Shown: positions 2,434-40,721 of the stretch, in pieces
Layout of the letters: the number at the start of each line of letters is the position of its first letter
Numbering within the stretch: position 1 is the first letter of the stretch
Source of the DNA: a virus
Lineage: Duplodnaviria; Caudoviricetes
Length of the DNA stretch: 40,721 nt
IMG/VR virus record: IMGVR_UViG_3300016464_000318
Span: 1 to 40,721 of that record
Strand: one strand, 5' to 3'
Program-made: the position numbers and the translations under genes
Notes under the pieces: model-generated
Seen by the model: the letters and a program-made list of their open reading frames with translations, nothing else
Databases searched by the model: none
Told to the model about the DNA's origin: nothing

Positions 2434-3453
2434 ATGTCTGAAGGAACTCAGGCGGCTCCGGCAAGCGAAAGCACCGGCACCGTAGAGGAAGCTGCGTCCA
2501 AAATCGAAGCGCTGCTGTCGGGCAAGAAGCCCGAGAAACGGCAAGCTGCTCCGGCAGCGGAAGCGGCAGAACCGGCGCCAGAGGCCATACAGGCCGACGA
2601 CGTCGCCACCGAGGATCTCCCGCCAGAGACGACGGCGCCCGATGAGGACGACGAGGCGGATGCTCCTCCCCCCGAAACCGATGATGAAGCTGAAGGCGAC
2701 CAAGAGCCGGAACCGCTCTACACCGTTAAAATTAACGGCAAGGAAGAGCAGGTTTCGCTCAAAGAAGCTCTCAACGGCTATCAACGGCAGCAGGATTACA
2801 CGCGAGCCAAGCAAGAGTTCGCCGCCGAGAAACGTGAATTTTCGTCAGAACTGGATGCGGCTCGACAGGAGCGTGAGATATACTCACAGCTGCTGCCGGC
2901 GCTGATCCAGCGGATGCAGTCGTCTATGCCGGCTGCGCCCGATCCGGCGCTGATTGACATGGATCCCTCGGCGTATCTTCGTCAAAAGGAAGCATACGAG
3001 CAGGCAATGGGTGATCTGCAGGCCGCTGTCTCTGAACAGTCGCGTCTGTCAGAACAAGGAAAGGTTGAGCAGCAGCGTCGCCTCCAAGCCTTTGTGGCAG
3101 AGAACGCAGCGAAGCTCCCGGAACTGATCCCAGAGTGGAAGGATCGCAAAGCCTACGAACGCGATCGCCCCAAGGTTCGGGAATATCTCGTGTCGCGTGG
3201 TTTCTCCGACGAGGAGATCAACCAGGCATACGACGCCCGGCTTGTCGCGATGGCGGCGGATGGAATGCGTTACCGGGAACTGCTGAAAGGCAAGATCCGG
3301 CCAGTGGCGCCAGCTCCGCAGAAGGCTTTGAAGCCTAACCCGCCAAGCTCTGCTCCTCCGAAGGTAAATCGCGACGCACAGGCTGCGCGCAATCGTCTCG
3401 CTAAATCTGGCCGCGTGGAAGATGCCGCTGCGGCCATTCGCGCACTCCTTTAA
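2434..3453 (+). CDS. Capsid scaffolding protein
   Basis: Acidic Pro/Ala-rich N-terminus, YTVKINGKEEQVSLKEALNGYQRQQDYTR motif, coiled coils, C-terminal helix RLAKSGRVEDAAAAIRALL; precedes the major capsid gene. Confidence 0.85.
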   Translation: MSEGTQAAPASESTGTVEEAASKIEALLSGKKPEKRQAAPAAEAAEPAPEAIQADDVATEDLPPETTAPDEDDEADAPPPETDDEAEGDQEPEPLYTVKINGKEEQVSLKEALNGYQRQQDYTRAKQEFAAEKREFSSELDAARQEREIYSQLLPALIQRMQSSMPAAPDPALIDMDPSAYLRQKEAYEQAMGDLQAAVSEQSRLSEQGKVEQQRRLQAFVAENAAKLPELIPEWKDRKAYERDRPKVREYLVSRGFSDEEINQAYDARLVAMAADGMRYRELLKGKIRPVAPAPQKALKPNPPSSAPPKVNRDAQAARNRLAKSGRVEDAAAAIRALL

Positions 3454-3465
3454 TGGACTAGAGAA

Positions 3466-4464
3466 ATGGCTACGGTAACTCGTTACGACTACTCTTCTTC
3501 GATCCGCGAGGATCTTGAGGACATCATCTATAATATCTCGCCGACCAAGACGGCGTTTATGAACAATGTTGGTCGCACGACTGCGGACAACACCTACCAT
3601 GAATGGCAGACCGATATTCTTGCCGATGCTAACGGTTCGAATGCGGCGGTCGAAGGCGCTGACGCCACCGATACGGCCTTTGTGGCCCCGTCGCGTTGCG
3701 GCAACTACACCCAGATCTCGACGAAGACGCTTAACGTCTCCGGCACCTCTGGCGCGGTTGACGCTGCGGGCATGAAGACGATTGAGGCTTACCTCATCGC
3801 CAAGCACGGCAAAGAGCTGAAGCGCGACATGGAGACGATCCTCCTGTCGAACCAGGCTGCGGTTGCTGGCGACGCCTCGACGGCTCGTAAGCTCGCGGGC
3901 TTCCCGACCTGGATCAAGACGACTGCTCAGACGCCTGCCGGTAACGGTATCGTCGTCGGCACCGTCACTGGCCCGGCGTATTCGGGTGGCGCTTCGACGG
4001 TCTCGGGCGCTCCGACGACCGCCTGGACGCTGACGAGCGGTTCGGCTGCTTTCACGGAAACGAACCTGAAAGACGCCATCCGCAATATGTATCAGAAGGG
4101 TGGCGAACCCAAGATGATGCTCGTTTCGCCGGTCAACAAAACCCGCGTGTCGGGCTTTGCTGGTCTGTCGCAGACGCGCGTCAACACTGAGGTGAAGAAC
4201 GGTCAGGCCACGATTGTTGGGTCTGCGGATCTTTATTTGAGCGATTTTGGCCCGCTCGACATCGTTCCGTCGCTCTTTTGCAACGGCAACTTTGCCTACT
4301 TTGTCGACCCGGACTACGCGAAGGTTGCGTATCTCCGTCCGTTCCAGCGCACTGAGCTGGCTCGCACGGGTGACGCGAAACGCTCGCAGCTCCTGGCCGA
4401 ATACACCCTGGTGGTCAATTCGCCCTACGCGCATGCCGTTGTAGCAAATATAACGAACACCTAA
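3466..4464 (+). CDS. Major capsid protein (DUF5309/SU10-like family)
   Basis: REDLEDIIYNISPTKT, HEWQTD, GNYTQI, KELKRDME, LARTGDAKRSQLLAEYTL motifs; followed by a terminator. Confidence 0.9.
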   Translation: MATVTRYDYSSSIREDLEDIIYNISPTKTAFMNNVGRTTADNTYHEWQTDILADANGSNAAVEGADATDTAFVAPSRCGNYTQISTKTLNVSGTSGAVDAAGMKTIEAYLIAKHGKELKRDMETILLSNQAAVAGDASTARKLAGFPTWIKTTAQTPAGNGIVVGTVTGPAYSGGASTVSGAPTTAWTLTSGSAAFTETNLKDAIRNMYQKGGEPKMMLVSPVNKTRVSGFAGLSQTRVNTEVKNGQATIVGSADLYLSDFGPLDIVPSLFCNGNFAYFVDPDYAKVAYLRPFQRTELARTGDAKRSQLLAEYTLVVNSPYAHAVVANITNT

Positions 4465-7745: not shown

Positions 7746-10213
7746 TGTTTAGCGCCAAAGACATCTTTCTGACGAAGGCCAAGGGCGGCTACACCATCGC
7801 CAAGAGCCTGCGCTTTCGCTCGTCTGCGTCTGCTTATTTGAGCAGGACGAACGTAGCAACTCCAACAAACAATAAGATATTCACGGTTTCAAAATGGGTG
7901 AAGCGCGGAACAATTAACGACGCAACATCATTTGAAAACCTGCTTGGCGGAACTGCTACGCAAAGTGATACGTTTGGTTTCGGTTCAGTCACAAACAACG
8001 CTGGCGATAGCATACAGCTACGAGACGCGTCTGTTGGCAGCTATAATCTACTTACGACGCAAGTATTTCGTGACCCGTCTGCGTGGTATCATTTGGTTCT
8101 TTCCATTGATACAACGCAGGCCACGGCTGCAAATCGCGTTAAGCTGTATGTAAATGGTGTTCAAGTAACATCGTTTTCAACGGCTACATATCCGGCGCAA
8201 AACTATGTATTTGAATGGAATGCAGCGTCTACCGCGACTGTCATAGCTAGACGAAATAGCGTTTCCGCCACATATCTATTCGACGGCTACCTATCCGAAG
8301 CCTATTTCATCGACGGACAAGCGCTAGACCCGACCTATTTCGGCCAGACAGACACGGCTACCGGCGTCTGGATGCCGAAGGCTTACACCGGCTCGTATGG
8401 CACAAACGGCTTCTATCTTAAATTTGCTGACGCCAGCGCTGCGACGGCTGCGGCTATCGGCAAAGACAGCAGCCCGAACGGCAACAATTGGACGCCGAAT
8501 AATATCTCTGTGACGGCGGGCGTCACCTACGACAGCATGGTTGATACGCCGACAAACTACGATAACGGCGGGAATGGCGCGGGGAATTATGCGGTTCTTA
8601 ATCCGCTTGCTGTAAGCTCCAACGCAGCAACGATGTCAAATGCTAATCTTAGCTTCAGCCCAAGCCCAGCGACCAATACTAGGCGTCAAGGAACAATCGC
8701 CGTTTCTACAGGTAAATGGTACTTTGAAGTTTCACCAACCACCCTAGGCGGAAATTTTCCGGCCATAGGAGTTATGCTTGCGACGACAAACGATTTCAAT
8801 AACTACGTTGGCGCAGAAGCAGGAACATTTGGTTACTATTCTTCTGGGGGTGTAAATGGTGGCGGCGGTGGCAGGACGTATTCCTCATATACGACAACGG
8901 ATATAATCGGTGTAGCAATTGATTGTGATAATAGTCAGATAACGTTCTATAAAAATAATAGCAACGCTGTAACGTCAGGCACAACATATGAAAGCCTAAC
9001 GGCAGGCGCTTCGTATATACCGGCTGCATCTGGATATAATAGCGCCGTATTTGTATTTAACTTTGGGCAGCGAGGTTTTGATAATTCAACTGTATGGGCG
9101 ACATTAAAGGCCTCTGGCTTCAAAGCGCTCTGCACACAGAACCTACCCACGCCGACGATTGGCGCGACTAGCAGCACAAACGCCGCTAATTATATGGCCG
9201 TAACAACATGGAGCGGAAACAGCGGGACGCAGAACATTTCCAATGCTGTAAATGGCTATTCTTTCCAGCCAGATTTCATCTGGTCAAAATGTCGAAACTC
9301 CGCCAGAAGCCACAGATTGATTGACGCCGTTAGAGGGGCGTCTAAGCAACTATATTCGGATTATGTTGCGGTATCGGAAGCGACGCCGACTTCAATCACC
9401 GCCTTTCTATCCAATGGTTTCACGACATATAATGATCCGACCGATGCGTATAATGTTACCGGTGAGACATATGTTTCTTGGCAATGGAAGGGCGGCAACG
9501 GCACGTCAAACATCGCTGTAAACGCTTACGGCTCCACGCCATCAATCGCCAGCGCCGTCAGCGCGAATGTCACGGCGGGGTTTTCGGTTGTGACTTATAC
9601 CGGAAATCTTACCGCAGGAGCGACAATAGGACATGGGTTAGGTGTTGCACCAAAGATGGTAATTGTTAAAGACCGCGATACTGCGGCTACGGATTGGGCT
9701 GTTTACCACGCATCAATCGGGAATACTGGCGCTGTTAGGTTAAACCTGACAAACGCAACAGATACAGCAGTTCAGTATTGGAACAACACTTCACCGACAT
9801 CCACAGTATTTAGCGTTGGCGCTGGCGGTTTTACGAATGGAAGCGGAAAGAAAATCGTCGCCTACTGCTTTGCCGAAGTCGCTGGCTACTCGAAATTCGG
9901 CAGCTATACGGGTAACGGTTCGACTGATGGGCCGTTCGTGTATTGCGGGTTTAGGCCGCGCTTCATTATGCTGAAATGTTCTGGCGCTGCTGAAAACTGG
10001 CAAATCTACGACACGGCACGCGATACATATAACGTGGTGGGCTTGCAGTTGCTTCCTAATTCTAGCGCGGCGGAAGCCGCTTCGTCTGTTCTTGATGTTT
10101 TATCCAACGGTTTTAAGTTGCGAAACTCAGCGGCTGGCGGAAACCAAGCACAGACATACATATACGCGGCTTTTGCGGAAAGCCCATTTTCCGTGAATAA
10201 TAGGGCCAGATAA
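7745..10213 (+). CDS. Receptor-binding/fibre protein with LamG (ConA-like) and SPRY-like domains
   Basis: SLRFRSSASAYLSRT, FRDPSAWYHLV, GKWYFEV, FQPDFIWSKCR, GFRPRFIMLK, YIYAAFAESPF motifs. Confidence 0.8.
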   Translation: MFSAKDIFLTKAKGGYTIAKSLRFRSSASAYLSRTNVATPTNNKIFTVSKWVKRGTINDATSFENLLGGTATQSDTFGFGSVTNNAGDSIQLRDASVGSYNLLTTQVFRDPSAWYHLVLSIDTTQATAANRVKLYVNGVQVTSFSTATYPAQNYVFEWNAASTATVIARRNSVSATYLFDGYLSEAYFIDGQALDPTYFGQTDTATGVWMPKAYTGSYGTNGFYLKFADASAATAAAIGKDSSPNGNNWTPNNISVTAGVTYDSMVDTPTNYDNGGNGAGNYAVLNPLAVSSNAATMSNANLSFSPSPATNTRRQGTIAVSTGKWYFEVSPTTLGGNFPAIGVMLATTNDFNNYVGAEAGTFGYYSSGGVNGGGGGRTYSSYTTTDIIGVAIDCDNSQITFYKNNSNAVTSGTTYESLTAGASYIPAASGYNSAVFVFNFGQRGFDNSTVWATLKASGFKALCTQNLPTPTIGATSSTNAANYMAVTTWSGNSGTQNISNAVNGYSFQPDFIWSKCRNSARSHRLIDAVRGASKQLYSDYVAVSEATPTSITAFLSNGFTTYNDPTDAYNVTGETYVSWQWKGGNGTSNIAVNAYGSTPSIASAVSANVTAGFSVVTYTGNLTAGATIGHGLGVAPKMVIVKDRDTAATDWAVYHASIGNTGAVRLNLTNATDTAVQYWNNTSPTSTVFSVGAGGFTNGSGKKIVAYCFAEVAGYSKFGSYTGNGSTDGPFVYCGFRPRFIMLKCSGAAENWQIYDTARDTYNVVGLQLLPNSSAAEAASSVLDVLSNGFKLRNSAAGGNQAQTYIYAAFAESPFSVNNRAR

Positions 10214-10731
10214 TGCCAGCAGCGATTGACATATCTGGTCATAAGTTCGGGATGCTTACGGCAATCCGTAGAACTGATAAGCAAACACGCTCAAGACAAT
10301 GGATTTGGGAGTGCAAATGCGACTGTGGGAAAACTACTGAAACCCGCGCCGGAAATTTAAGATGCGGGCGCACAAAGTCGTGTGGTTGTTTGCAAAGGGC
10401 AAGCGGCGAGAAAAGCCATAATTTTAAGCATGGGTATTCAGATAAAAGCCATCCAGAATACAAACGGTATCAACGAGAAAATTATGACAAATGCCGATAC
10501 GGTTTAGAACCAGAGACAAAGGCCGCAATGATTGAGGCGCAGAATAACAAATGCGCTATTTGCGGCTACCAGTTTGGACAAAAAATAGGAGACATGCACG
10601 TTGACCATTGCCATACGACAGGCAAGGTTCGAGGGCTTCTCTGTGATTTATGCAATCGTGGGTTGGGTTATTTTTGCGATAGCCCGGATAACCTGAATAC
10701 TGCGGCGCAATATTTAACGAGGGCGCGATGA
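10213..10731 (+). CDS. Endonuclease VII-type (HNH-fold) homing endonuclease
   Basis: N-terminal GHKFGMLT...WECKCDCG...KSCGC; C-terminal QNNKCAIC...HVDHCHTTGKVRGLLCDLCNRGLG; lower GC than flanks. Confidence 0.85.
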   Translation: MPAAIDISGHKFGMLTAIRRTDKQTRSRQWIWECKCDCGKTTETRAGNLRCGRTKSCGCLQRASGEKSHNFKHGYSDKSHPEYKRYQRENYDKCRYGLEPETKAAMIEAQNNKCAICGYQFGQKIGDMHVDHCHTTGKVRGLLCDLCNRGLGYFCDSPDNLNTAAQYLTRAR

Positions 10732-15823: not shown

Positions 15824-15854
15824 TAAAACAATCAGCCAGTATAAGGTGGATAAA

Positions 15855-16877
15855 ATGGCTAACGAATGGATGTATATGCTGCCGGCGCTGCAGTCGAGCA
15901 ACAGCAACACAAGCACGACGCAGAAGACGTCAATCCCGCAATGGCTGACTGATGCTTCGCAGTATGGCGTCAACAACGCCAAGAACATTTTGTCTGCCGG
16001 AACCCCGCAATATAATGGGGCGCTGTCGGCTGGTCTGACGGGTGATCAGCAAAACGCCGGTCAGATGATACGCGGCAGCATGGGTCTCGCTCAGCCTTAT
16101 TATGATCAGGCCCAGGGCGCGATTGGCAGCTCCATGCAGGCGATCAACCCATCGACGCTGGCGCAGGGTCTGTCTGGCATCGGCCAGTATATGAACCCCT
16201 ACATCTCCAACGTCGTCGACAGCCTGAAGGCTCAGAGCGCGCAGAACCTTGATCAATCGCTGTCGCAGACGGCTGACCAGGCGATCGCCGCAAAAGCCTT
16301 TGGCGGATCCCGACACGGTGTGCAGGAAGGCGTCGCGACGGCGAACAATAATCTTGGTCTAAACAACCAGATCGCAAGCCTGCTGTCGGGTGGCTACAAC
16401 AACGCGCTGACGCAGCTCGGCAGCGATGTGAATACACAGAACGCTGCCGCTCAGCAAAATCGATCCAATGCTCTTGCTGGCGGTCAGGCAATGGCTGGCC
16501 TCGGAACAACGGCCCGCTCATCCAACAGCGCTGACATAAACAACCTGCTCACATACGGCGCTCTTGATCAGCAAAACCAGCAAAGCGCACTTGATCGCAA
16601 TTACAACCTTTGGAATTTCCAGTCGCAATATCCGCTGCAGGCGCAGCAAATGTATAACCAGACGCTATCCTCGGCCCCGCATGACACCTCGTCGTCAGGC
16701 ACCTCAAGCGGCAGCACGACATCGATCGGTTGGGCGCCGCAGCAGCAGACGTCTAGCAGCCCGCTGATGCAGGGTCTGGGCGGTCTGATGGGTCTCGGCT
16801 CTCTCTTCGCCTCTCCCGCCGGCGGCGTTAGCGCCATCACCGGCATGGGCAATGCTTTCCGGGGGCTGCTGCAATGA
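15855..16877 (+). CDS. Putative DNA ejection (internal virion) protein 1
   Basis: Gln/Asn/Ser/Gly-rich; YMNPY and AFGGSR motifs; ends RGLLQ. Confidence 0.75.
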   Translation: MANEWMYMLPALQSSNSNTSTTQKTSIPQWLTDASQYGVNNAKNILSAGTPQYNGALSAGLTGDQQNAGQMIRGSMGLAQPYYDQAQGAIGSSMQAINPSTLAQGLSGIGQYMNPYISNVVDSLKAQSAQNLDQSLSQTADQAIAAKAFGGSRHGVQEGVATANNNLGLNNQIASLLSGGYNNALTQLGSDVNTQNAAAQQNRSNALAGGQAMAGLGTTARSSNSADINNLLTYGALDQQNQQSALDRNYNLWNFQSQYPLQAQQMYNQTLSSAPHDTSSSGTSSGSTTSIGWAPQQQTSSSPLMQGLGGLMGLGSLFASPAGGVSAITGMGNAFRGLLQ

Positions 16878-17512
16878 CGCCGCAAGAGATCGCTTATCTC
16901 CGCTCAAAAGCCGGGCAGGCCGGGTACAACGCTGACGACCTTCTCAAGGTCATCAATTACGAAAGCTCTGGGCGTCCCGGCGCCTGGGGAGGCAAGGATG
17001 ACAAATATTTCGGTCTGATCCAGTTCGGCCCCGCCGAGCGCAAACAGTTCGGCGTTGACACGGCTCATCCGAATGCCCCGAACCAGATCGACGCCGCGAT
17101 CAAGTTCCTCGCGGCTCGCGGGTTCAAGCCTGGCATGGGCCTGCAGGATATGTATTCGACGGTGCTTGCCGGATCTCCTGGTCACTACAATCGATCGGAT
17201 GGAGCTGGCACGGTCGCGCAGCATGTCGCAAAGATGTCGGGTGGATATCCGCTTGCTTACAGCTCTAGCGCGAAGGCTGCGCCGACGAACATCGGAGAGC
17301 TGATCGGATTGCTGGAGGCTGATCGATTGGCCCCGGCGCCAGAGCCTGTTCCAATGCCCACTACGCCGACCGGCCTGGTCGGTATTCGCAAAGCCGCTAT
17401 GGGCCTCGCAGACGAGAGCCAGGACGAGCAGGACGATCTCCAGCAGCAGGCGATGCTCGATTTCCACAGATTGAACCACGCCAAGGCTATGGGCCTGCTG
17501 GGAGGTGAATAA
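16874..17512 (+). CDS. Virion lytic transglycosylase-like ejection protein
   Basis: VINYESSG...YFGLIQF...DMYSTVL lysozyme-like motifs; ends GLLGGE. Confidence 0.75.
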   Translation: MTPQEIAYLRSKAGQAGYNADDLLKVINYESSGRPGAWGGKDDKYFGLIQFGPAERKQFGVDTAHPNAPNQIDAAIKFLAARGFKPGMGLQDMYSTVLAGSPGHYNRSDGAGTVAQHVAKMSGGYPLAYSSSAKAAPTNIGELIGLLEADRLAPAPEPVPMPTTPTGLVGIRKAAMGLADESQDEQDDLQQQAMLDFHRLNHAKAMGLLGGE

Positions 17513-18939
17513 TGTCGCTGCCGCTTGAAGATTTTTTCCGTCGTCTCACCGGCCAGCCGATGCAGCTTCCTGGCGCGCCGCAGCCTGCCGGCCAGCCTGT
17601 GGCGGCTCCTTCTCCGTCTGTCGCCGCCGTCGCCGCTCCGACGCTGCAGCAGACCCAGCAGCAGGATTTCAACAACGCGGCTCTGCAGCGGATGGGCCAG
17701 CTCGGGATGATGTTGGTCGCCGCCGGTCAGCGGATGACGCCGAAAGAGCGCGCGACAATTCTGGCGCAGGCTCCGCAGTATATGAGCGGCATCCAGGGCG
17801 ACATGCAGACGGCGGCGCAGGCGCGTCTGATGAACACGCGCGCTCAGCAGGAGCAGAGCGAGCAGGATCGCCAAGCGGCGCTTGTGGAGCGCCTCAAGGA
17901 TCCGAAATTCGCGCAGAGCGTCGGCATCTCTCCTGAGATACTTTCAACGCTCGGCCCGCAGGGGGTAATCGACGCCCTGAAGGCTCGCGCGGCAAGAGAT
18001 CCGATTGATGAGGCTTACAAGCTCGCTCAGATCAATAGTCTCAGCAAGCCTAAATGGCAGATCACTGGCACGGACGAGTTCGGCAAAACTAAATATGACC
18101 TGGTCGGCCCCAACGGTGAGATTATGACGCCGGCGGGATCTCGCGGCCCCGGCGGCGGTCAGAACATCCTAGACCAGGTTGGCGATCTCACGGGTCAGGC
18201 AGCTCTCGACAAGCTCCGGCAGATCAGCCCCGCGATCGCATCCGAGGTCGCCGGCATCGCCACTTCGCAGCAGCCTTTCCCGTCGAAGAAAATGGGAACG
18301 CCAGAGGGCGCGCTGCTCAACGCGCTTGTCTCTCAGGTCGCCGGCCCTGAGTTCAACGCGATGGATTACGGCGCTAGGAAAGCGGCGTATGAGGCGCAGT
18401 CTTTGAATACGCCGAACTCCGCAGGCGGCATTCGCAAAAATGCTGAGACCGCTCTGCGCCATTTCAAAAATCTTTACGACAATTCCGATCTCCTTCCCGA
18501 GAACGACTACGGCATCGCTTCTCAGCTCGCGAACAAGGGCCAGATCCTGGCGGCTGGTCGCAAGGCTCAAGGCAACGATCCCTTCACAAAAAAGCTCGGC
18601 GTCTACGGCAACACGCTGGAGATTGGCGGCGACGAAATGGCGAAGGCTCTCGGTATTAACTCTGAGGGTGGCCGCGAAGCGATCAAGGCGATGTTCGACC
18701 CCAGCCAGGGCAAGAGCGTCGTCCAGCAAAAGATCAAAAACCAGATCAAGCTGCTCGGCGAGAAATTGCGCGGCCAGCAGGAAGACTGGAACCGCGTCAT
18801 GGGGCCGGTCGCATCTAAGCGCTTGCAGATCATCCAGCCTGACGTCGCTGAGATCCTGAAGCTCGGCGAGGATCAGCAGCCGGAAGCTCCCCAGAACAAT
18901 CTCCCGCACGGCGTTCGCTCGATTAAAAGGATCAACTGA
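17512..18939 (+). CDS. Putative DNA ejection protein 2
   Basis: Helical, Gln/Ala-rich; coupled between the other ejection genes. Confidence 0.65.
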   Translation: MSLPLEDFFRRLTGQPMQLPGAPQPAGQPVAAPSPSVAAVAAPTLQQTQQQDFNNAALQRMGQLGMMLVAAGQRMTPKERATILAQAPQYMSGIQGDMQTAAQARLMNTRAQQEQSEQDRQAALVERLKDPKFAQSVGISPEILSTLGPQGVIDALKARAARDPIDEAYKLAQINSLSKPKWQITGTDEFGKTKYDLVGPNGEIMTPAGSRGPGGGQNILDQVGDLTGQAALDKLRQISPAIASEVAGIATSQQPFPSKKMGTPEGALLNALVSQVAGPEFNAMDYGARKAAYEAQSLNTPNSAGGIRKNAETALRHFKNLYDNSDLLPENDYGIASQLANKGQILAAGRKAQGNDPFTKKLGVYGNTLEIGGDEMAKALGINSEGGREAIKAMFDPSQGKSVVQQKIKNQIKLLGEKLRGQQEDWNRVMGPVASKRLQIIQPDVAEILKLGEDQQPEAPQNNLPHGVRSIKRIN

Positions 18940-20627
18940 TGCCGACATTTGAGATCGTCGGGCCTGACGGCGGCACCTACCACATCGACGCCGACAACGA
19001 GGCGGCTGCTCTTTCCGCCTTTCACCCCGAGGCGAATACGATCGCAGGCCCGGCGGCTGATTTCACCGCCGGCATGATGCGCAAGTTCAAGCAGGGCGCT
19101 GCGCTTGGTTTTGGCGACGAGGCGTCTGCGGCTCTCAAGGGCGTCTTTGGAGGTCGTGGCGCCGAGGGCAATACCTTTGGCGAGCGATATGCCAATGCCC
19201 GCGATTATGAGCGCCGCGCACTGGAGCAGGCCGACAAGGACACCGGCTGGTATGGCACGGGCGCCGAGATCGCCGGATCCATCCCGGCGTCGATCGCAGG
19301 TGGTGAGATATTCTCCGCTCTGCGCGGTCTCCAGGCCGGCGGCAAAGCGGTCAAGACAGCCGTTCCGCTGCTCTCCAAGCCTGCAGCAGCTCTTCCGGTC
19401 ACAGCGGAGGCCGCTGGCGCGTCATTGCCGGCTCTTGCTGGATCTGTGACCCCGCGCACTGCGGTCGCTCCTGCGGCCACCAGAGCCAACTGGGAAGCGC
19501 TGAAGAACAGCATGGGCGCCGGCGCAATCACGGGCGCAGTTCAGGCTGGTGGCGATGCAGACACGGTCGCCGAGATGCCTGACCAGATGCTGAAAGGTTC
19601 GCTCGTCGGCGCTGTCGGCGGCGCGGCGGGTCACGGCCTGGGCGCAGCAGCCAATCGCCTAGCGGCTTACACCAACGCCGCTGAGCGGGTGGCGCGATCG
19701 CCGTCAACGCAATCGTTGAAAGATACGGCGCAGAAATTTTACGGCGCCTTCGAGAACTCCGGCGGCAGATACACGCCCGCATTCATCGACGACATGCGCA
19801 CGGCGCTTATGAAGAAGCTGCAGTCTGAGGGCTGGTCGTCATCTATAACGTCGAAACCTGTCGGCGTGATGCGCGAGCTGGACAAACTCCGGCAGATGGA
19901 GGCGATGGGTCTCGGCAAGCCGACCCCGACGCAGATCCAAAACGTCCGCAACATGATCCAAAACATCCGCCGCAGCGACGACGACAACGAAGCGCGGTTT
20001 GGCTCGCTGTTAATGGACGAGTTCGACAACCTCCTGACGAACCCGGCCAGCCACCATTTCGTCGGCGGCGACGGCAAGGTCTCGGCGGCAAACCTGGCAG
20101 AAGGCAACAAGCATTGGCGCCAATATTCCAAGGCCAATGAGCTGGACGACGCCATGTGGCGCGCTCAGAACCGCGCAGGCTCGACCTACTCAGGCGGCAA
20201 CATCAACAACGCCATGCGCCAGAACCTGCGCCAGGTCTGGGAACGCCACGGCATGGGCAACTATACGCCGGACGAAAACGCAGCGATGCAGGTCGGCGTT
20301 CGCGGCAATACGGCTGAGAACCTTGCGCGCAAGATCGGAAACTACTCTCCGCTGAAAGGCCCGGTGTCGGCTCTCGCTCTCGGCTCAATCCTCCACGATT
20401 ACCCGGAGATTGCGCTTGCGGTCACGGGCGTCACGCATGGCGCCAAAGTTCTTGGCGACCAGCTGACGAAACGCAACGTCAATGAGGCGATGCGGGTGGT
20501 TCGCGCTGGAGGAACGAGGCGACCCGTTCTTCCTCCTCCGAATGCGATCCAGAGAGGCGTCAGAACAATGACGCGACCTCTTGGTGGCATTGGCGGCGCG
20601 GCGGCTGTTCGAGGTCTCCTCGACTAG
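18939..20627 (+). CDS. Putative DNA ejection protein 3
   Basis: MPTFEIVGPDG N-terminus, QGAALGFGDE motif, Gly/Ala-rich hydrophobic segments; ends RGLLD. Confidence 0.7.
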   Translation: MPTFEIVGPDGGTYHIDADNEAAALSAFHPEANTIAGPAADFTAGMMRKFKQGAALGFGDEASAALKGVFGGRGAEGNTFGERYANARDYERRALEQADKDTGWYGTGAEIAGSIPASIAGGEIFSALRGLQAGGKAVKTAVPLLSKPAAALPVTAEAAGASLPALAGSVTPRTAVAPAATRANWEALKNSMGAGAITGAVQAGGDADTVAEMPDQMLKGSLVGAVGGAAGHGLGAAANRLAAYTNAAERVARSPSTQSLKDTAQKFYGAFENSGGRYTPAFIDDMRTALMKKLQSEGWSSSITSKPVGVMRELDKLRQMEAMGLGKPTPTQIQNVRNMIQNIRRSDDDNEARFGSLLMDEFDNLLTNPASHHFVGGDGKVSAANLAEGNKHWRQYSKANELDDAMWRAQNRAGSTYSGGNINNAMRQNLRQVWERHGMGNYTPDENAAMQVGVRGNTAENLARKIGNYSPLKGPVSALALGSILHDYPEIALAVTGVTHGAKVLGDQLTKRNVNEAMRVVRAGGTRRPVLPPPNAIQRGVRTMTRPLGGIGGAAAVRGLLD

Positions 20628-32002: not shown

Positions 32003-33103
32003 ATGGCGAACTACTACAACGAGATTGATCCATTCGCCGCCGCATGGCTGCGCAAGCTGATTGAAGCAGGGCTGATACCGGAAGGCGATGTTGATGAGCG
32101 CTCAATTATCAATGTTAGAGCTGATGATCTCAGAGCCTATCGACAATGCCATTTTTTCGCTGGCATCGGCGGATGGAGCCACGCTCTTCGACTTGCTGGA
32201 TGGCCCGACGACAGGGAAATCTGGACAGGCTCATGTCCGTGTCAACCGTTCAGCGTCGCCGGCAAAGGCAAAGGCAAATCCGACGAGCGACACCTTTGGC
32301 CTATTTTCTTCCGCCTCATCTCCGAATGCCGACCTGATGTCGTCATGGGCGAACAGGTTGCGGGCAAAGCTGGATACGATTGGCTCGACGGAGTTGCCGC
32401 TGATCTGGAAGGAGAAGGCTACGCCGCAGGGGCGGTTGATATACCGGCTTGCGCCGTCGATGCGCCGCACATCCGACAGCGCCTCTACTGGTGCGCCGTG
32501 GGCCACCCCAACGCTATGCGGGAACTACAACCGCAAGGGATTATCAGCGACGAGCGGGGATGGATTGGCGACGCAGGCGCTGGCGACATGGTCAACGCCG
32601 ACTGTGCAGGACAGCGAGAACACGGCAGGGCCATCTCAATTTTTGAGGAACAGCCAAGCGCTCAACGTGCAAGCGGTGACGCATTCGACATGGCCGACGC
32701 CAACGGTGGCGGATGTGATGGGTGGCAGGAAACATCGCAGCGGAGCAAGGAGCGGGGAATTATTGTTGAACGGGTTGGCGGCTGCGACATGGCCGACGCC
32801 GACAGCCAATCAATTCGATGGGGGAGATCCGAAGAAGCTACTGGAGAGACGCGATGCCATGAAGGCGAAGCACAACAACGGAAACGGGTTTGGTCTGACG
32901 CTTGGTCAGATGGCAACAATTTCTGGACAGACCATCAATGGCTCACAGGCGCCGATGGAAAAACGCGGCGCGCTAAACCCGGAGTTCGTTTGCTGGTTGA
33001 TGGGGTTCCCGGCAGGGTGGGACGCTTGCGGGGTTATGGCAACGCCATCGTCCCGCCGCTCGCGGCAGAAATGATCAAGGCATTCATGGAGGTCGCGCCA
33101 TGA
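32003..33103 (+). CDS. C5 DNA cytosine methyltransferase, alpha polypeptide
   Basis: Motif I FFAGIGG, IV GSCPCQPFS, VI EQV, VIII PHIRQRLY, X LRGYGNAIVP. Confidence 0.9.
   Translation: MANYYNEIDPFAAAWLRKLIEAGLIPEGDVDERSIINVRADDLRAYRQCHFFAGIGGWSHALRLAGWPDDREIWTGSCPCQPFSVAGKGKGKSDERHLWPIFFRLISECRPDVVMGEQVAGKAGYDWLDGVAADLEGEGYAAGAVDIPACAVDAPHIRQRLYWCAVGHPNAMRELQPQGIISDERGWIGDAGAGDMVNADCAGQREHGRAISIFEEQPSAQRASGDAFDMADANGGGCDGWQETSQRSKERGIIVERVGGCDMADADSQSIRWGRSEEATGETRCHEGEAQQRKRVWSDAWSDGNNFWTDHQWLTGADGKTRRAKPGVRLLVDGVPGRVGRLRGYGNAIVPPLAAEMIKAFMEVAP
32094..33074 (+). CDS. Nested +1-frame methyltransferase beta polypeptide
   Basis: Stop-free for more than 320 codons inside the MTase gene; GGAAGG 8 nt before ATG 32094; W-x-T-P repeats; LNPEFVCWLMGFPAGW motif IX-like segment. 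Confidence 0.7.
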   Translation: MSAQLSMLELMISEPIDNAIFSLASADGATLFDLLDGPTTGKSGQAHVRVNRSASPAKAKANPTSDTFGLFSSASSPNADLMSSWANRLRAKLDTIGSTELPLIWKEKATPQGRLIYRLAPSMRRTSDSASTGAPWATPTLCGNYNRKGLSATSGDGLATQALATWSTPTVQDSENTAGPSQFLRNSQALNVQAVTHSTWPTPTVADVMGGRKHRSGARSGELLLNGLAAATWPTPTANQFDGGDPKKLLERRDAMKAKHNNGNGFGLTLGQMATISGQTINGSQAPMEKRGALNPEFVCWLMGFPAGWDACGVMATPSSRRSRQK

Positions 33104-35776: not shown

Positions 35777-35806
35777 GGCCAGTGGGGGCAACCTCGCTGG
35801 TCTTTT
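35777..35806 (+). terminator. Putative terminator
   Basis: GGCCAGTGGGG-GCAA-CCTCGCTGGTC followed by TTTT. Confidence 0.6.
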
Positions 35807-35989
35807 ACATTTCTGGGCGCCTGTCTGATCTGCCTTCGCTGTCACAAAGGTGGCAATGATCTGAGGGCATACAGACACCGCTAGACATCTCCACCAGAGA
35901 ATACTGCGGCCTCGTTTGCGCGCCGATCTCCGGGCGCCTGACCTCGGCAGGCGGGGCCGCAACCAACCACTAGAGAACGGCAACAACGC

Positions 35990-36631
35990 ATGACTGAGCC
36001 AGCCAAAAAGCTGAGGGCAACCTCGGCGGGGCTAAGCCGGACTGAGCGACTGCTGGCAAAGGCGACGGCAAGCAAGCCGGCAGCAAAGCAGGCGCAAAGC
36101 CCCGGAAAGCCTAAGAGGACAGCCTCCTCAAATTTTCGGGCGCCTGAACACAACGCTACCCAGAACCAGATAGCTGTAGAGAAGAAGACAGGAAGACCGT
36201 CAGGCTTCACAGAGGAGCTGGGCAAGGAGATCTGCAACCGCATCGCAGGCGGCGCACATCTGAGCAAGCTCGTCGAAGAAGGCATCGTGCCAAGCACATC
36301 AGCCTTTGCGAGATGGACGAGAGGCGACACGGAGGAGAGCCAACGCTTCCGGGCCGAGGTCGCGCGCGCTCAGGAAGATCGCGCTGAACTCTGGGCTGAT
36401 CAGCTCATCGAGATCGCCGACACCGACGAGGACGCCAATCGCGCTCGCGTTCGCATCGATGCGCGCTGGAAGGTCATAGGAAGCCTGCTGTATCGCCGTT
36501 ACGGGGTGAAGACGCAGGTGGACATCAATCAGAACGTCAATGTGGCTGTGGCTCACGCTGACGCATTGCTGCGCCTGGCAGGACAGGCCAAGCAGATAGA
36601 GACAGACTACAAGGACGTCACACCGAGGTAA
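35990..36631 (+). CDS. terS: Terminase small subunit
   Basis: GRPSGFTEELGKEICNRIAGG, ADQLIEIAD, RARVRIDARWK. Confidence 0.85.
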   Translation: MTEPAKKLRATSAGLSRTERLLAKATASKPAAKQAQSPGKPKRTASSNFRAPEHNATQNQIAVEKKTGRPSGFTEELGKEICNRIAGGAHLSKLVEEGIVPSTSAFARWTRGDTEESQRFRAEVARAQEDRAELWADQLIEIADTDEDANRARVRIDARWKVIGSLLYRRYGVKTQVDINQNVNVAVAHADALLRLAGQAKQIETDYKDVTPR

Positions 36632-36937
36632 CTCCCTTGCGAGGGGAGTGCTTATGCAATGCGATCAATGCATTGCGATATACTCCACGAGATATGCGTC
36701 GGGCAGGCAGCCACCTGGACGACCGGGGCCGCTCGGCCCCCCTGGGGGCTGACCACCGGCGGGGGCGGCTGCAGGAGCATCCCTCCTCTCTGCTTCTTTA
36801 CCTTTAGCGAAAAAAATCAAATCGCTAAAAAATTACACAAAATTTGGACGAAAATGCCTGTTTTCCCGGTGTTTTATCCAAGAAATCTGTAACCGTACTC
36901 GCAGCGTTTGGGTTCCGTCAGATTGTCGTGGCTCTAA

Positions 36938-37252
36938 CTAGCAGCGACGACCACCTTGCCCTGCGCACACGAGAGCGAGGCCGGTGAGAGCTGTGGAGTT
37001 CTGCGCGTAGGCGTTGCCTTGGTTTGCGACGCCGTATGAGGCGGCGATGTTGCTTTCGCGCGCTCTCAAGGCTCCGGCGTATTGCTGGCGAGCGAGATCT
37101 GCCTCGGCGACGCTCATCTGCTTTTTTTCGACCTTCTCGGCCAGAACCCGGTCGTATGCTTTGAGTTCCAGCTCGGCTTGCGTTGGCTGGGATGTGCATC
37201 CGGCGAGCAGAAGCATGCCGGTGGCGATGGCGGCGAGCGCTTGGTTTTTCAT
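36938..37252 (-). CDS. Lipoprotein (moron-like)
   Basis: GGGAG RBS; MKNQALAAIATGMLLLAG-C lipobox; opposite to the late operon. Confidence 0.75.
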   Translation of the reverse strand: MKNQALAAIATGMLLLAGCTSQPTQAELELKAYDRVLAEKVEKKQMSVAEADLARQQYAGALRARESNIAASYGVANQGNAYAQNSTALTGLALVCAGQGGRRC

Positions 37253-37312
37253 GGTGGTCTCCCTCTGAGGGGATCTTTTCCATGAAATGTGGCTAATTTC
37301 TGAAGGCTGAAA

Positions 37313-38965
37313 ATGGACGCATCTGGCTTTATTCGCGGCTTACTGGACGACCAGGAAGACCCGCAGCAGCCGCAGTATGTGGCGTCCAATGATTTCGGGC
37401 CTCGGGCTTATGGTTTGCTCGACCAGCTCTTCCCAGACCCTTACAAGGCGTCTGGCGACGCTGTAGCGCAATATAAGAACGGCGATCTGCTCGGCGCGTT
37501 TGAGACGATGTTCGGCGCGATGCCGACGACGGGCGCTTTGAGTGCTGCCGAGAAACAGGCGAAGCTGCAGGCAAATTATCAGGCGCGTCTTCGTCAGCCT
37601 GGCGAGGTTGGCGGCCTTTTAGGAACGCCGCATATCCCGATCGCGCAGGGCGACATGCGCATTTCGACGCGTCAGCCGTCGTCGATAATGAAATCGATCG
37701 AAGACCCTTACACAGAGCATCTTTCTGTCGGGTTGCCTGAATTTCTTGCTGACGCAAATGCCGCGCACAACGCCAGTCTGTTGGCGGATTATCCTGGTTT
37801 TGAGCATTTGCGCGGGATGTCTCCTGCTGACGCAGCCGAGGGCTATGTCGAGCAGGCTCGCGGCAATATGAATTACCTTTACCGGAACACGCCGGAGATC
37901 ATGCGTCAGCGCTCTCCGCTCTGGTATGATGGCGCGCATGAGGTGTCGGACGCTTTGGCGAAACGCTGGGGTGTCGCCAGACCGCAGGTCTCTGCCGGCA
38001 TTGCCGCGCTCAGCCCGCAGAAAGATTGGTTCCAAAATGCCTCCCTCGCCGAGCGAGCCGGCGATATAATTTTCGGCCCGACGTCTAGCGTTAAGATGAC
38101 GCCGGAGATGATGGCGTTCGCCAACCGCCCGCACTCCAAACAGTCGCCCAATTTCATTACGTCCAACCAGGATGTCGCGGATCTCTATCGGGCCATCCAG
38201 GGAAAATCGTTTTCTCAGCTCAATGACCCGGATGCGCAGGCGCTGTGGATCCGCCTGTATGACGAGGCCCATAATCCGAAGGCCTATCGATCAATCACCC
38301 CCGAGGGTGAGTTCGGCGATTTCGTCAGGACGGGCAAAGGCAACACCCGGAATATGGCCTGGGGTTCGATCAACGAGATCTCGAAGGCTGTTCAGGCTCT
38401 GACGGGCAATGGAACGAATGCCGAGATCCAGGGTCTCCTCGGCGGGACGCACAAGGTTCCGAGCTTCTACAACAATATTGAGGTTCCGAACGACCCCCGG
38501 TTCGGCGATGTGACTGCTGATACGCACCAGGTTGCGGCTGCTCAGCTTCGCCCGCTCTCGGGCAAGTCGGCGGCGGTTTCTCATAATTTCGGCCCCGGCC
38601 TGGCAAAAAAGGATCAGCCGGAGGATTGGCGCCCAGCTAAATCATCCGCCATCACGGGCCTGAACGGGACATATGGATTAAATGCGGAGGCGACCCGCCG
38701 GTTTGCTTCTGATGTTGGATTATTGCCCAGAGCGGGGCAATCGGTCGGCTGGGAGCCGGTAAGAGAGTTATTCACTGACACCTTTAAGCGCAGTCCAGAA
38801 AGTGCTAAAATAGACGAAATCTGGAGAGCTAAAGATGCAGGAAAACTCACCCTCGACGAGGCCCGCGACGCCGTCCTCCGAGCTGCTGGAGGAATTGGAA
38901 ATCCTGCGTGGGCGAAATCCAGCGTTAAATCGATTGCTCCTCAACGGGGGTCAACTTACCGCTAA
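37313..38965 (+). CDS. 550-aa protein with GLL-repeat N-terminus and HhH-GPD glycosylase-like core
   Basis: WYDGAH, IAALSPQKDW..N, HKVPSFYNN...DVTADTH, LLPRAGQSVGW. Confidence 0.65.
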   Translation: MDASGFIRGLLDDQEDPQQPQYVASNDFGPRAYGLLDQLFPDPYKASGDAVAQYKNGDLLGAFETMFGAMPTTGALSAAEKQAKLQANYQARLRQPGEVGGLLGTPHIPIAQGDMRISTRQPSSIMKSIEDPYTEHLSVGLPEFLADANAAHNASLLADYPGFEHLRGMSPADAAEGYVEQARGNMNYLYRNTPEIMRQRSPLWYDGAHEVSDALAKRWGVARPQVSAGIAALSPQKDWFQNASLAERAGDIIFGPTSSVKMTPEMMAFANRPHSKQSPNFITSNQDVADLYRAIQGKSFSQLNDPDAQALWIRLYDEAHNPKAYRSITPEGEFGDFVRTGKGNTRNMAWGSINEISKAVQALTGNGTNAEIQGLLGGTHKVPSFYNNIEVPNDPRFGDVTADTHQVAAAQLRPLSGKSAAVSHNFGPGLAKKDQPEDWRPAKSSAITGLNGTYGLNAEATRRFASDVGLLPRAGQSVGWEPVRELFTDTFKRSPESAKIDEIWRAKDAGKLTLDEARDAVLRAAGGIGNPAWAKSSVKSIAPQRGSTYR

Positions 38966-39074
38966 GCGGTATATTGATTTCAATTGGTGCGGCGAGCCGC
39001 CGGACGAGTTCTCAGAAGACGAACAGCAGCTGATCGATCTGCTCCTCGAATATGAGGGCCAGCATCAGCCATAA
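38835..39074 (+). CDS. Small acidic protein overlapping the 3' end of the 550-aa gene
   Basis: GGAG RBS 8 nt before the ATG; 15 D/E versus 6 K/R in 79 aa; fills the gap to terL. Confidence 0.65.
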   Translation: MQENSPSTRPATPSSELLEELEILRGRNPALNRLLLNGGQLTAKRYIDFNWCGEPPDEFSEDEQQLIDLLLEYEGQHQP

Positions 39075-39089
39075 GGCATAAAAACACGC

Positions 39090-40481
39090 ATGGCAGATCT
39101 CTCCGAGGCTCTTGAGATCTTCATCGCCGCATACCGCGATGAGCCTGTAAAATTTGTCAGGAATGTCCTCGGCGCCGAGCCGATGCCCTGGCAAGAACAG
39201 TTCCTGATGCATGTCGCGAAGGGCGAGCGTCGGATCTCGGTTCGAGCTGGTCACGGTGTCGGAAAATCCACCGCCTGCGCCTGGCTACTCATCTGGCACA
39301 TGATCACCAGGCTCCCGCAGAAAAGCGTCTGCACGGCGCCGACTGCTGGACAGCTGTATGATGCGCTGTTCTCTGAGGTCAAGCATTGGGTGGGCCGACT
39401 GCCTGAACCGCTCAGAGAAAGCCTCGATGTTTTTTCCGATCGCATCGTGCAAAAAGCCTCGCCCGAGAGCAGCTTTATAACCGCGCGAACAAGTTCGGCG
39501 GAACGTCCCGAAGCCTTGGCCGGTGTCCATTCTGAGAATGTTCTCCTCATCTGCGACGAGGCGAGCGCTATTCCAGAGGCGGTGTTTGAGAGCGCTGCAG
39601 GTTCGATGTCCGGTCACGCCGCGACGACGATCCTGATCGGGAACCCGACGCGAAACACTGGGTTATTTTTTAGAACGCACCACCAGTTAAAGCACGACTG
39701 GAAAACGATGCATGTTTCGTGCGTCGATATTCCGCTCGTGAGTTCTGATTTCGTCGAGCAGATCAAAACGACATATGGCGAAAACTCGAATGCCTTCCGT
39801 GTTCGCGTTCTTGGTGAGTTTGCTCTGCGCGATGACGATAGCCTCATTGCAGCTGATCTTGTGGATGCTGCTATGTCGCGAGATGTTGCGCTCGACCCGA
39901 CGCAAGATCTGATCTTTGGTTGCGATATTGCCCGTTACGGCGCCGACAGGTCTGTGATCTGCAAGCGCAGAGGCAACGTCGTCATCGAGATGCGCCATTG
40001 GTCTGGCGAAGACTTGATGGGAACGGTGGGCAGGATTGTCCATGAAGCGAACATGGATAAACCCGCTGAGATTTGCGTGGACAGCATTGGCCTTGGTGGC
40101 GGTGTCGCCGATCGTCTGCGCGAACTGGGTTTTAATGTTCGCGATGTCAACGTCTCCGAGAGCAATGCGCTCAATCAGCAGGCGTATCGATTAAGAGACG
40201 AACTCTGGATCGCCACGAAAGATTGGCTGGAAAGCCGCGCGGTCAAGATCCCGAAAGATGATGATTTACGAGCTGAGCTAATCGCTCCCTCGTATAGCTT
40301 TGCATCGAACGGCAAGATCAAGGTCGAGAGTAAAGCTGAATTAAAGAAGCGCGGCATGCGGTCTCCTGACTTGGCCGACGCGCTGTGTCTGACGTTTGCA
40401 GGTCAAGGCGCGATGGTCGGAGGAAGATCCATGAAATGGATCTCCGGCAAGCCCCTGCAGCGCAACGTCGCAATTTGCTAG
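39090..40481 (+). CDS. terL: Terminase large subunit
   Basis: Walker A RAGHGVGKS, Walker B LLICDEAS, GNPTR coupling motif, nuclease GCDIARYGADRS and SPDLADAL. Confidence 0.95.
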   Translation: MADLSEALEIFIAAYRDEPVKFVRNVLGAEPMPWQEQFLMHVAKGERRISVRAGHGVGKSTACAWLLIWHMITRLPQKSVCTAPTAGQLYDALFSEVKHWVGRLPEPLRESLDVFSDRIVQKASPESSFITARTSSAERPEALAGVHSENVLLICDEASAIPEAVFESAAGSMSGHAATTILIGNPTRNTGLFFRTHHQLKHDWKTMHVSCVDIPLVSSDFVEQIKTTYGENSNAFRVRVLGEFALRDDDSLIAADLVDAAMSRDVALDPTQDLIFGCDIARYGADRSVICKRRGNVVIEMRHWSGEDLMGTVGRIVHEANMDKPAEICVDSIGLGGGVADRLRELGFNVRDVNVSESNALNQQAYRLRDELWIATKDWLESRAVKIPKDDDLRAELIAPSYSFASNGKIKVESKAELKKRGMRSPDLADALCLTFAGQGAMVGGRSMKWISGKPLQRNVAIC

Positions 40482-40492
40482 GAAAACACTGA

Positions 40493-40721
40493 ATGGCTCG
40501 TCGTAGACGCCGCCGCTCGTCTCCATCTCCGATGGATGCGGGCCAGGCCGCATATCTCGAAACGTCTGCTCCTGTTGCGGGAGATGAGGACTATGCAGAG
40601 GATGCCGGCGTAGAAGACGACGCTGACGAGGACGAGGAAGACAACAACTCCTACGGCCCCGGCAATGCCGACATGCGGCAGAAACTCAATCCGCTCGACG
40701 AGACTGAGTTCCAGAACCGCG
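40493..40721 (+). CDS. Portal protein, N-terminal part (continues at position 1)
   Basis: ATG at 40493, 11 nt after the terL stop; 76 codons plus G joins TC at positions 1-2 (GTC, Val) and stays in frame with ORF 162..2135; reads MARRRRRSSPSP...DETEFQNR|VAIGVQAAETY. Confidence 0.88.
   Translation, partial: MARRRRRRSSPSPMDAGQAAYLETSAPVAGDEDYAEDAGVEDDADEDEEDNNSYGPGNADMRQKLNPLDETEFQNR

Follow-up and report, generated by a model that had tools for sequence, protein, structure and literature searches.

A candidate effector-immunity pair between terS and terL of an SU10-like podophage: a predicted DNA glycosylase/lyase and an overprinted acidic partner

The stretch of DNA analysed here, hereafter the window, is the complete 40.7-kb virus record IMGVR_UViG_3300016464_000318 (40,721 nucleotides), an SU10-like podophage. 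Family searches identified among its genes the SU10 portal, capsid, adaptor and DNA ejection protein, an integrase and a C5 methylase. The portal open reading frame (ORF) continues in frame across the window ends (40493-40721 plus 1-2135), and the record is therefore a circularly permuted genome; judged from its integrase gene, the phage is temperate. The subject of this study is a gene pair in the slot between terS and terL (Table 1), made of a 550-residue ORF, which matches the Pfam family DUF7178, and a 79-residue acidic ORF. A sequence-only reading had proposed that these genes form a MuF-independent effector-immunity pair, in which an HhH-GPD glycosylase is packaged and injected and the small protein inhibits it. 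The position of both ORFs between terS and terL and their 131-nucleotide overlap were borne out.

The small ORF encodes 15 acidic (Asp/Glu) and 6 basic (Lys/Arg) residues, with an isoelectric point of 4.3, and is preceded by its own Shine-Dalgarno (SD)-like site, in agreement with the sequence-only reading. Compared with the related locus L001, the part of the gene outside the overlap carries 8 synonymous changes over 18.7 sites and 1 non-synonymous change over 77.3 sites, a non-synonymous to synonymous ratio (pN/pS) of 0.03; the ratio lies between 0.03 and 0.07 in the window's lineage. In the enzyme frame, synonymous change relative to L001 drops about tenfold, from 152/279.5 sites outside the overlap to 2/35 inside, and the N-terminal third of the small protein is constrained by the enzyme frame. 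We conclude that the 79-residue ORF is a real gene under purifying selection. It matched no sequence family in family searches, NCBIfam, PADLOC or the Atlas, and an Atlas search with a homolog returned one weak, unnamed viral cluster (0.81).

A profile of this partner, for which 80 viral loci were combined with the window, found it in 58 of these 81 loci and in 25 of 42 further loci left out of the profile. Across the resulting 123 loci (86 clusters at 90% identity; 5 loci in 3 clusters were unscorable), it lies after the QSxxW motif in 79 loci, representing 52 clusters, and thus follows the enzyme domain in most relatives. The co-occurrence of the two ORFs expected by the sequence-only reading therefore holds for 52 of the 86 clusters, the partner being undetected in about a third. 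That reading had also recognized the overlap, but overlooked how frequently the partner is fully nested inside giant proteins. In 28 clusters, the partner is nested in the +1 frame of a gene whose own frame continues for at least 100 residues, in some cases for more than 1,000; the host proteins reach 3,300 residues, and many are phage polyvalent proteins. Among 22 nested copies, it is the +1 frame that is conserved (BLOSUM 1.96 vs 0.44 for the host frame), with nucleotide identities of 0.51/0.62/0.39 by codon position of the +1 frame, and the host frame over the partner reads as a Gly/Arg/Pro-rich linker. SD-like sites stand ahead of 67% of 61 candidate ATGs, compared with 19% of 344 control ATGs. 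Giant ORFs totalling 355 kb were also screened without the profile; this yielded eight nested acidic ORFs with a strong SD, all eight being the partner gene. Such a nested partner is invisible to a gene caller that forbids nesting. A few copies fall outside the pattern: one is antisense (L107), one in frame 0 (L104), and others in frame 2 (L055, L066, L091, L119). These copies, together with the partner's own starts and SD sites, rule out a frameshift tail, and the codon-position and pN/pS tests rule out a shadow ORF.

DUF7178 (PF23802, E = 1.3e-12) is the only Pfam match of the 550-residue protein. PHROG matches are to proteins of unknown function only, NCBIfam and PADLOC gave no match, and an Atlas search returned DUF7178 clusters only. 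The family is large: a word-index search with the window's protein found 327 homologs, and a DUF7178 profile search returned 4,880 clusters (50% identity) at E <= 0.001, 1,828 of them at E <= 1e-30. In a 121-sequence alignment, residues 1-100 are variable and residues 110-535 conserved. K381, F385, D403, H405, Q476 and W480 are each present in 121/121 sequences, S234 and P235 in 120 and Q236 in 119. The motifs named in the sequence-only reading are thus all in place: AALSPQ (230-236), K381-VPSFYNN, D403-T-H405 and Q476-xxx-W480. The enzyme gene is itself under purifying selection, with a pN/pS of 0.04-0.05 against L001 and L002.

The structure model of residues 110-550 is confident (predicted local distance difference test, pLDDT, 95.3; predicted template modelling score 0.93). 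In the VIA structure search of 48,161 chains, the top 20 matches are all base-excision glycosylases or QNG1/DUF2419 proteins (Z 8.8-5.2, root-mean-square deviation (rmsd) 3.4-5.3, 157-232 aligned residues), and the first unrelated chain follows at Z 4.3. By family, the scores are 8.8 and 8.7 for QNG1/DUF2419, 8.5 for Ogg2, 7.1 for AGOG and 6.6 for endonuclease III. The case for a predicted HhH-GPD fold rests on this single kind of enzyme filling the match list and on the order of the motifs. The proposed HhH-GPD membership hence stands at the level of the model, while endonuclease III, the earlier point of comparison, gives way to Ogg2, AGOG and QNG1 as the closest relatives. These enzymes act on guanine derivatives, making 5-methylcytosine or N6-methyladenine less likely substrates.

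The comparison with Ogg2 extends to individual residues. The conserved order in 31 Ogg2 proteins is TPQ, K139..F144..N147, D158-R-H160, Y183 and D205-xxx-W209; that of DUF7178 is SPQ, K381..F385..N388, D403-T-H405, Y454 and Q476-xxx-W480. The best local profile alignment, which is not significant, places Y454/Q476/W480 on Y183/D205/W209. The model displays a two-domain helical fold, a helix-G377..K381-helix hairpin bearing the lysine, a Pro/Gly-containing loop (P392/G398) and D403, the hairpin being degenerate in that its second glycine is missing. Lys381 and Asp403 are predicted to be the catalytic pair. According to PMC3397491, the Gln/Asp at this position in OGG1, OGG2 and AGOG reads the guanine face and a Phe/Trp stacks on the base, and OGG2 discriminates 8-oxoguanine from guanine by its C-terminal lysine (carboxylate). 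In DUF7178 the chain runs 70 residues past W480, and more than 1,000 in some relatives, so an 8-oxoguanine sensor of the Ogg2 type is impossible. We infer that DUF7178 has a guanine-type pocket. Overall, DUF7178 shares with Ogg2, AGOG and QNG1 the predicted fold, the Lys/Asp pair, the DxH motif and the Q/D-xxx-W/F stacking motif, in the same order, but it is about twice their size, only 8-12% identical to them, phage-encoded, devoid of the C-terminal lysine sensor and accompanied by a dedicated partner.

Modelling of the enzyme-partner complex gave a score of 0.75, against 0.01 for the best control, with contacts agreeing to at least 85% and a partner pLDDT of at least 73. In the benchmark, 116 of 157 solved pairs attained the mark, as did 2 of 215 mismatched ones; for the alignments used, these figures are only approximate. 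On the enzyme side, the modelled interface comprises P235-Q236, R314, residues 351-358 (including Lys358), the hairpin 377-379 and K381, most of which are highly conserved; on the partner side, it is formed by the acidic stretch 54-68. The model thus supports the interaction proposed earlier: the two proteins are likely to bind 1:1, with the partner predicted to sit as an active-site plug over the catalytic cleft.

The slot that holds the pair is polymorphic. Among 26 loci found with terL, three carry DUF7178 with the same partner, 15 carry other cargo, six are empty (four of them distant) and two end before the slot. Cargo is therefore present in 18 of 26 loci, in eight types. Several of the other cargo open with a leader like that of the window, 76-80% identical over some 77 residues. 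In relatives with other cargo, the DNA matches that of the window up to 37533-37541 and again from the start of terL. At L001, the window's enzyme stands behind a different leader. The slot thus exchanges C-terminal domains behind shared leaders, as the sequence-only reading had anticipated. One cargo is LPD23 with an HExxH motif. Another, at L147, belongs by its model to a second HhH-GPD family (pLDDT 93.8) that clearly prefers Ogg2 (Z 9.9 vs 6.9; rmsd 3.8, 181 aligned residues). Compared with DUF7178 as single-sequence profiles, the L147 and L126 cargo gave no significant match; with an alignment, the L147 cargo matched at E = 8e-4, its C-terminal part at 3e-5. The 645-residue cargo of L126 (3831-5768) and L143 has PGLSAK..AIDRH and Q..W motifs and may represent a third HhH-GPD family. 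Neither the L126 nor the L125 cargo had a family match, their HhH-like and ADP-ribosyltransferase-like character being seen by eye only. Further cargo lie behind Gly-Leu-Leu leaders at L125:4125-5144, L134:806-2107, L132:4047-4811 and L137:5372-5848, and HNH-AP2 type endonuclease genes occur at or inside the terL start in L126, L129 and L133-L136.

Some of these cargo are also followed by small acidic genes. The L147/L123/L187, L134 and L126/L143 cargo each precede an acidic ORF of 54-60 residues on the opposite strand with a strong SD, that of the L147 type having 54-56 residues. Such ORFs imply an antisense promoter near the terL start and are candidates for immunity genes expressed in the lysogen. 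The antisense partners of L134 and L147 are alike although the cargo differ, so that they need not be cargo-specific. Sense-strand ORFs of 59-78 residues after other cargo were dropped in favour of the antisense ORFs, which have the better SD.

The leader of the window's enzyme carries a motif that had escaped the sequence-only reading: Gly-Leu-Leu, at residues 9 and 34 (and 101). The same motif ends proteins of the ejection cluster (Table 1), and in distant relatives the ejection-cluster proteins begin, rather than end, with it. Gly-Leu-Leu occurs no more than 15 residues from an end in 20 of 41 ejection-cluster homologs and 6 of 8 leader-bearing cargo, compared with 14 of 350 other genes, most of which are slot or ejection-cluster genes themselves. 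This distribution suggests that Gly-Leu-Leu is a head-loading (capsid-targeting) tag. Head incorporation of P22/SU10-type ejection proteins is described as scaffold-dependent in PMC8402733, and a literature search found no description of a packaging signal for ejection proteins. The wider family also points, indirectly, to the virion. Of 25 larger DUF7178 homologs scanned, 13 carry a further domain (LPD22/23/37/38, ART-PolyVal, InPase, GNAT or the wall hydrolase SLT). Phage polyvalent proteins are regarded as probably packaged and are read as anti-defence cargo (Iyer et al. 2017, PMC5512222). Most DUF7178 neighbours with a family match are genes for the terminase, portal, scaffold, connector, internal virion proteins or tail; in cultured phages, the DUF7178 gene follows the portal gene (Roseobacter phage CRP-738, gp40) or that of an internal virion protein (LS06-2018-MD07).

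Table 1. Positions of the gene pair, its motifs and related features; positions without a locus name are those of the window.
Feature	Position	Strand	Remarks
Effector gene, 550 residues, DUF7178 (PF23802)	37313..38965	+	Swappable leader and predicted HhH-GPD glycosylase/lyase domain
Leader, about residues 1-76	37313..37540	+	Common to different cargo domains in relatives; candidate head-loading tag
Conserved catalytic domain, about residues 110-535	37640..38920	+	Alignment and structure model
S234-P235-Q236	38012..38020	+	Compare Ogg2 T-P-Q; within predicted inhibitor interface
Degenerate helix-hairpin-helix, G377..K381 to F385	38441..38467	+	K381, predicted catalytic Lys
D403-T-H405	38519..38527	+	Predicted catalytic Asp and phosphate-binding His (Ogg2: D-R-H)
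Q476-xxx-W480	38738..38752	+	Predicted guanine-face reader and stacking residue
SD-like GGAG of the small gene	38823..38826	+	From enzyme codons W504-R505; duplex energy -6.4
Acidic partner gene, 79 residues, predicted inhibitor	38835..39074	+	+1 frame, 131-nucleotide overlap with the enzyme gene
terS, left slot border	35990..36631	+	PF20901, E 6e-21
terL, right slot border	39090..40481	+	Homology to relatives starts again here
Lipoprotein ORF (LAGC lipobox)	36938..37252	-	Antisense; separate moron
Ejection-protein cluster	15846..20627	+	Three of four proteins end in Gly-Leu-Leu (RGLLQ, MGLLGGE, RGLLD)
Ejection-cluster proteins ending in Gly-Leu-Leu	15846-16877, 16874-17512, 18939-20627		Homologs in L149-L177
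Second Pfam-less phage family, predicted HhH-GPD fold	L147:1953-3299, L187, L188		444 homologs
Short acidic antisense ORFs between cargo and terL	L126:5768-5947, L134:2097-2273, L147:3283-3450, L187:about 3968-4132	-	
Orphan partner copies, Bradyrhizobium chromosomes	L184 (G247:C2), L185 (G228:C399)		

The slot of the window also holds an antisense lipoprotein ORF, overlooked when the enzyme and the small ORF were first described. It has an 85% homolog in L134 and is missing from some relatives, two runs showing a junction 36928->37313 that skips it; the one run that might have been RNA is probably DNA. It is divergent from the effector gene, is replaced by other lipoproteins in L131, L132 and L137, and shows a weak EexN-like match (E = 0.026), which makes it a candidate exclusion protein. 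Elsewhere in the window, the scaffold gene lies at 2434-3453, the C5 cytosine methylase gene at 32003-33103 and an endonuclease VII/HNH gene at 10213-10731, among tail-fibre genes.

We favour, with a probability of about one half, the interpretation that the pair is a MuF-like phage effector-immunity system, in which the glycosylase is loaded into the head via its Gly-Leu-Leu leader and injected, and the small protein plugs its cleft. The predicted fold, the co-occurrence, the predicted interaction and the cargo swapping all support the MuF-independent pair first put forward, and no MuF domain is present. Both proteins would be made from a single late transcript, so that the inhibitor would shield the producing cell and the replicating phage DNA. 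The enzyme would then unfold through the portal, shed its inhibitor and become active in the next cell, where it would remove a guanine-type base from the DNA of the host or of a resident competitor and nick the strand; a recipient already making the matching inhibitor would be protected. As the target, we prefer a modified guanine marking non-self DNA to plain guanine: the incoming genome would then be spared, and the loss of the partner would be accounted for. Nesting in the +1 frame directly after the domain would let the pair move as a single module anywhere in a polyvalent protein. A broader and more tentative picture, possible rather than probable, is that a large podophage group loads any protein with a terminal Gly-Leu-Leu tag into the head, that the terS-terL slot is a polymorphic weapon cassette including several new families of injected glycosylases stripping guanine-type bases from non-self DNA, and that overprinted immunity genes amount to thousands of hidden antidotes, some of which bacteria keep as orphans.

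Several observations weigh against the injected effector. For an all-helical protein, the Z-scores of the VIA search are only moderate. Foldseek found no match in the PDB at E <= 0.001 (AGOG appeared at E = 0.71), PDB sequence and profile searches were empty or gave chance matches only, and the profile alignment with Ogg2 was not significant (E = 0.25-0.7). The window's enzyme has Pro383 where 115 of 121 sequences have Arg; a pseudogene is ruled out by its low pN/pS. Regarding delivery, one of the four ejection-cluster proteins lacks Gly-Leu-Leu, the 41 ejection-cluster homologs come from four families, so that the enrichment does not represent 41 independent cases, and GLL[DGE] occurs within the first 120 residues of only 19 of 120 enzyme homologs. 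Gly-Leu-Leu is therefore best regarded as a lineage-specific candidate tag. In this model, a temperate phage would also have to spare its own DNA and its new host.

The distribution of the partner is a further difficulty. No partner was detected in 39 of the 123 loci, or 31 of the 86 clusters. On a quick enzyme tree, from which two truncated or short clusters were left out, the partner is spread over 60 of 84 rows once seven weak in-place matches are credited, leaving 24 rows without it; this distribution needs 11 changes, at least five of them forced. Partner-less viral enzymes whose motifs were displayed keep the Lys, Asp, His, Gln and Trp, showing that the partner is not always needed, and 34 distinct loci lacking it offered, weak in-place homologs aside, no convincing candidate for a different one. 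The distances of enzyme and partner show a weak correlation, with rho 0.13 (Mantel p 0.07) overall and 0.05 for distant pairs. Finally, 251 Bradyrhizobium genomes contain four partner genes, two of them beside an intact enzyme. The third has only the last 50 enzyme codons alongside and adjoins resolvase and sbmA, and the fourth stands by itself, flanked by DUF4167 and an esterase. Retained immunity would account for these orphans and would favour the effector-immunity system, but they may also be prophage debris; 400 genomes drawn from the order held no further orphan.

The strongest alternative, which we nonetheless judge rather unlikely, is that the enzyme is injected for self-protection, removing guanine adducts such as 8-oxoguanine or ADP-ribosylated guanine from incoming phage DNA while the partner does no more than restrain it during assembly. 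The best structural matches are indeed repair and salvage enzymes, polyvalent proteins have been read as anti-defence cargo (PMC5512222) and the partner is dispensable in many lineages. However, a lesion-specific repair enzyme would rarely need a dedicated inhibitor, the Ogg2-type lysine sensor for 8-oxoguanine is impossible here, the slot exchanges cargo like a toxin cassette, and orphan partners exist in chromosomes.

We give less credence to a moron toxin-antitoxin or abortive-infection pair that is not injected and acts in the lysogen or the producing cell. The gene is co-oriented with the late operon, no sigma-70-like promoter was found in 35800-39200, the domain occurs within virion-type polyvalent proteins, and the leader motif is common to ejection proteins; these points outweigh, in our opinion, that the phage is temperate, that the slot also accepts morons (the lipoprotein and HNH genes) and that other cargo have antisense partners needing their own promoter.

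Slightly less probable again is a substrate other than DNA, with DUF7178 acting as a hydrolase of the QNG1 kind, which would remove queuine or another 7-deazaguanine from tRNA or nucleotides and be blocked by the partner. QNG1/DUF2419 proteins occupy the top two structural rows, tied with Ogg2, and the hairpin is degenerate, with one glycine. By contrast, the lysine at the catalytic position is invariant, as in DNA lyases, the sister cargo family is clearly closer to Ogg2, and the acidic partner docks on a basic cleft in the model. That the small ORF is no inhibitor, acting instead as a chaperone of folding or assembly or forming a +1 frameshift tail of the enzyme, is very improbable: it lies nearly always in the +1 frame directly after the domain and co-diverges weakly with the enzyme, yet its start and SD are its own and vary in position, some copies are antisense or in frame 0 or frame 2, and the predicted interface covers the catalytic lysine.

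The injected effector-immunity system has parallels in known phage proteins. The MuF polymorphic toxins of temperate phages, such as Apk2/IapK (PMC12226406, PMC3482391), are likewise encoded in the head module: a common N-terminus precedes a C-terminal enzyme that varies, and a small partner encoded downstream would occlude the active site. Here too, a common N-terminus with swapped C-terminal domains lies in a head module and a candidate immunity gene is linked to it, the binding of its product being predicted by the model. In contrast to MuF toxins, no MuF domain was found, the leader consists of a short Gly/Leu-rich segment and is shuffled in its own right, the enzyme is of the HhH-GPD type, and the partner gene is overprinted and often fully nested. 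Like the phage polyvalent proteins of PMC5512222, DUF7178 occurs in proteins of 800-3,700 residues with LPD22/37/38, ART-PolyVal, InPase or GNAT domains near virion genes; such fusions are found in relatives, whereas the copy in the window stands alone as a domain behind a leader. Neither 'glycosylase' nor 'overlap' occurs in the main text of that paper.

Ugi is a phage DNA-mimic inhibitor of a host glycosylase. The partner resembles it as a small acidic protein predicted to fill a glycosylase's DNA-binding cleft; Ugi blocks a host enzyme, whereas the partner would block the phage's own. Brig1 is reportedly a host-encoded anti-phage DNA glycosylase of a different fold, a weapon against modified DNA; it serves host defence, whereas in the DUF7178 system the phage would be the carrier. 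We found no published description of DUF7178, of a glycosylase toxin with immunity, or of a nested phage antitoxin, although supplements and subscription papers might hold one, and a literature mention of a polyvalent protein with a glycosylase was unrelated. What is new here is the predicted glycosylase-fold enzyme class, the non-MuF leader and the overprinted candidate immunity gene, in a system that would work in a MuF-like manner.

These results provide a testable function for DUF7178, a large unnamed phage family. If the interpretation is true, DNA glycosylases join the enzymes injected by phages, as a mirror image of host defence glycosylases. The candidate Gly-Leu-Leu tag makes the selection of P22/SU10-type ejection proteins for the head testable, and the conserved out-of-frame gene inside giant phage proteins calls for a search for hidden immunity genes in other polyvalent proteins.

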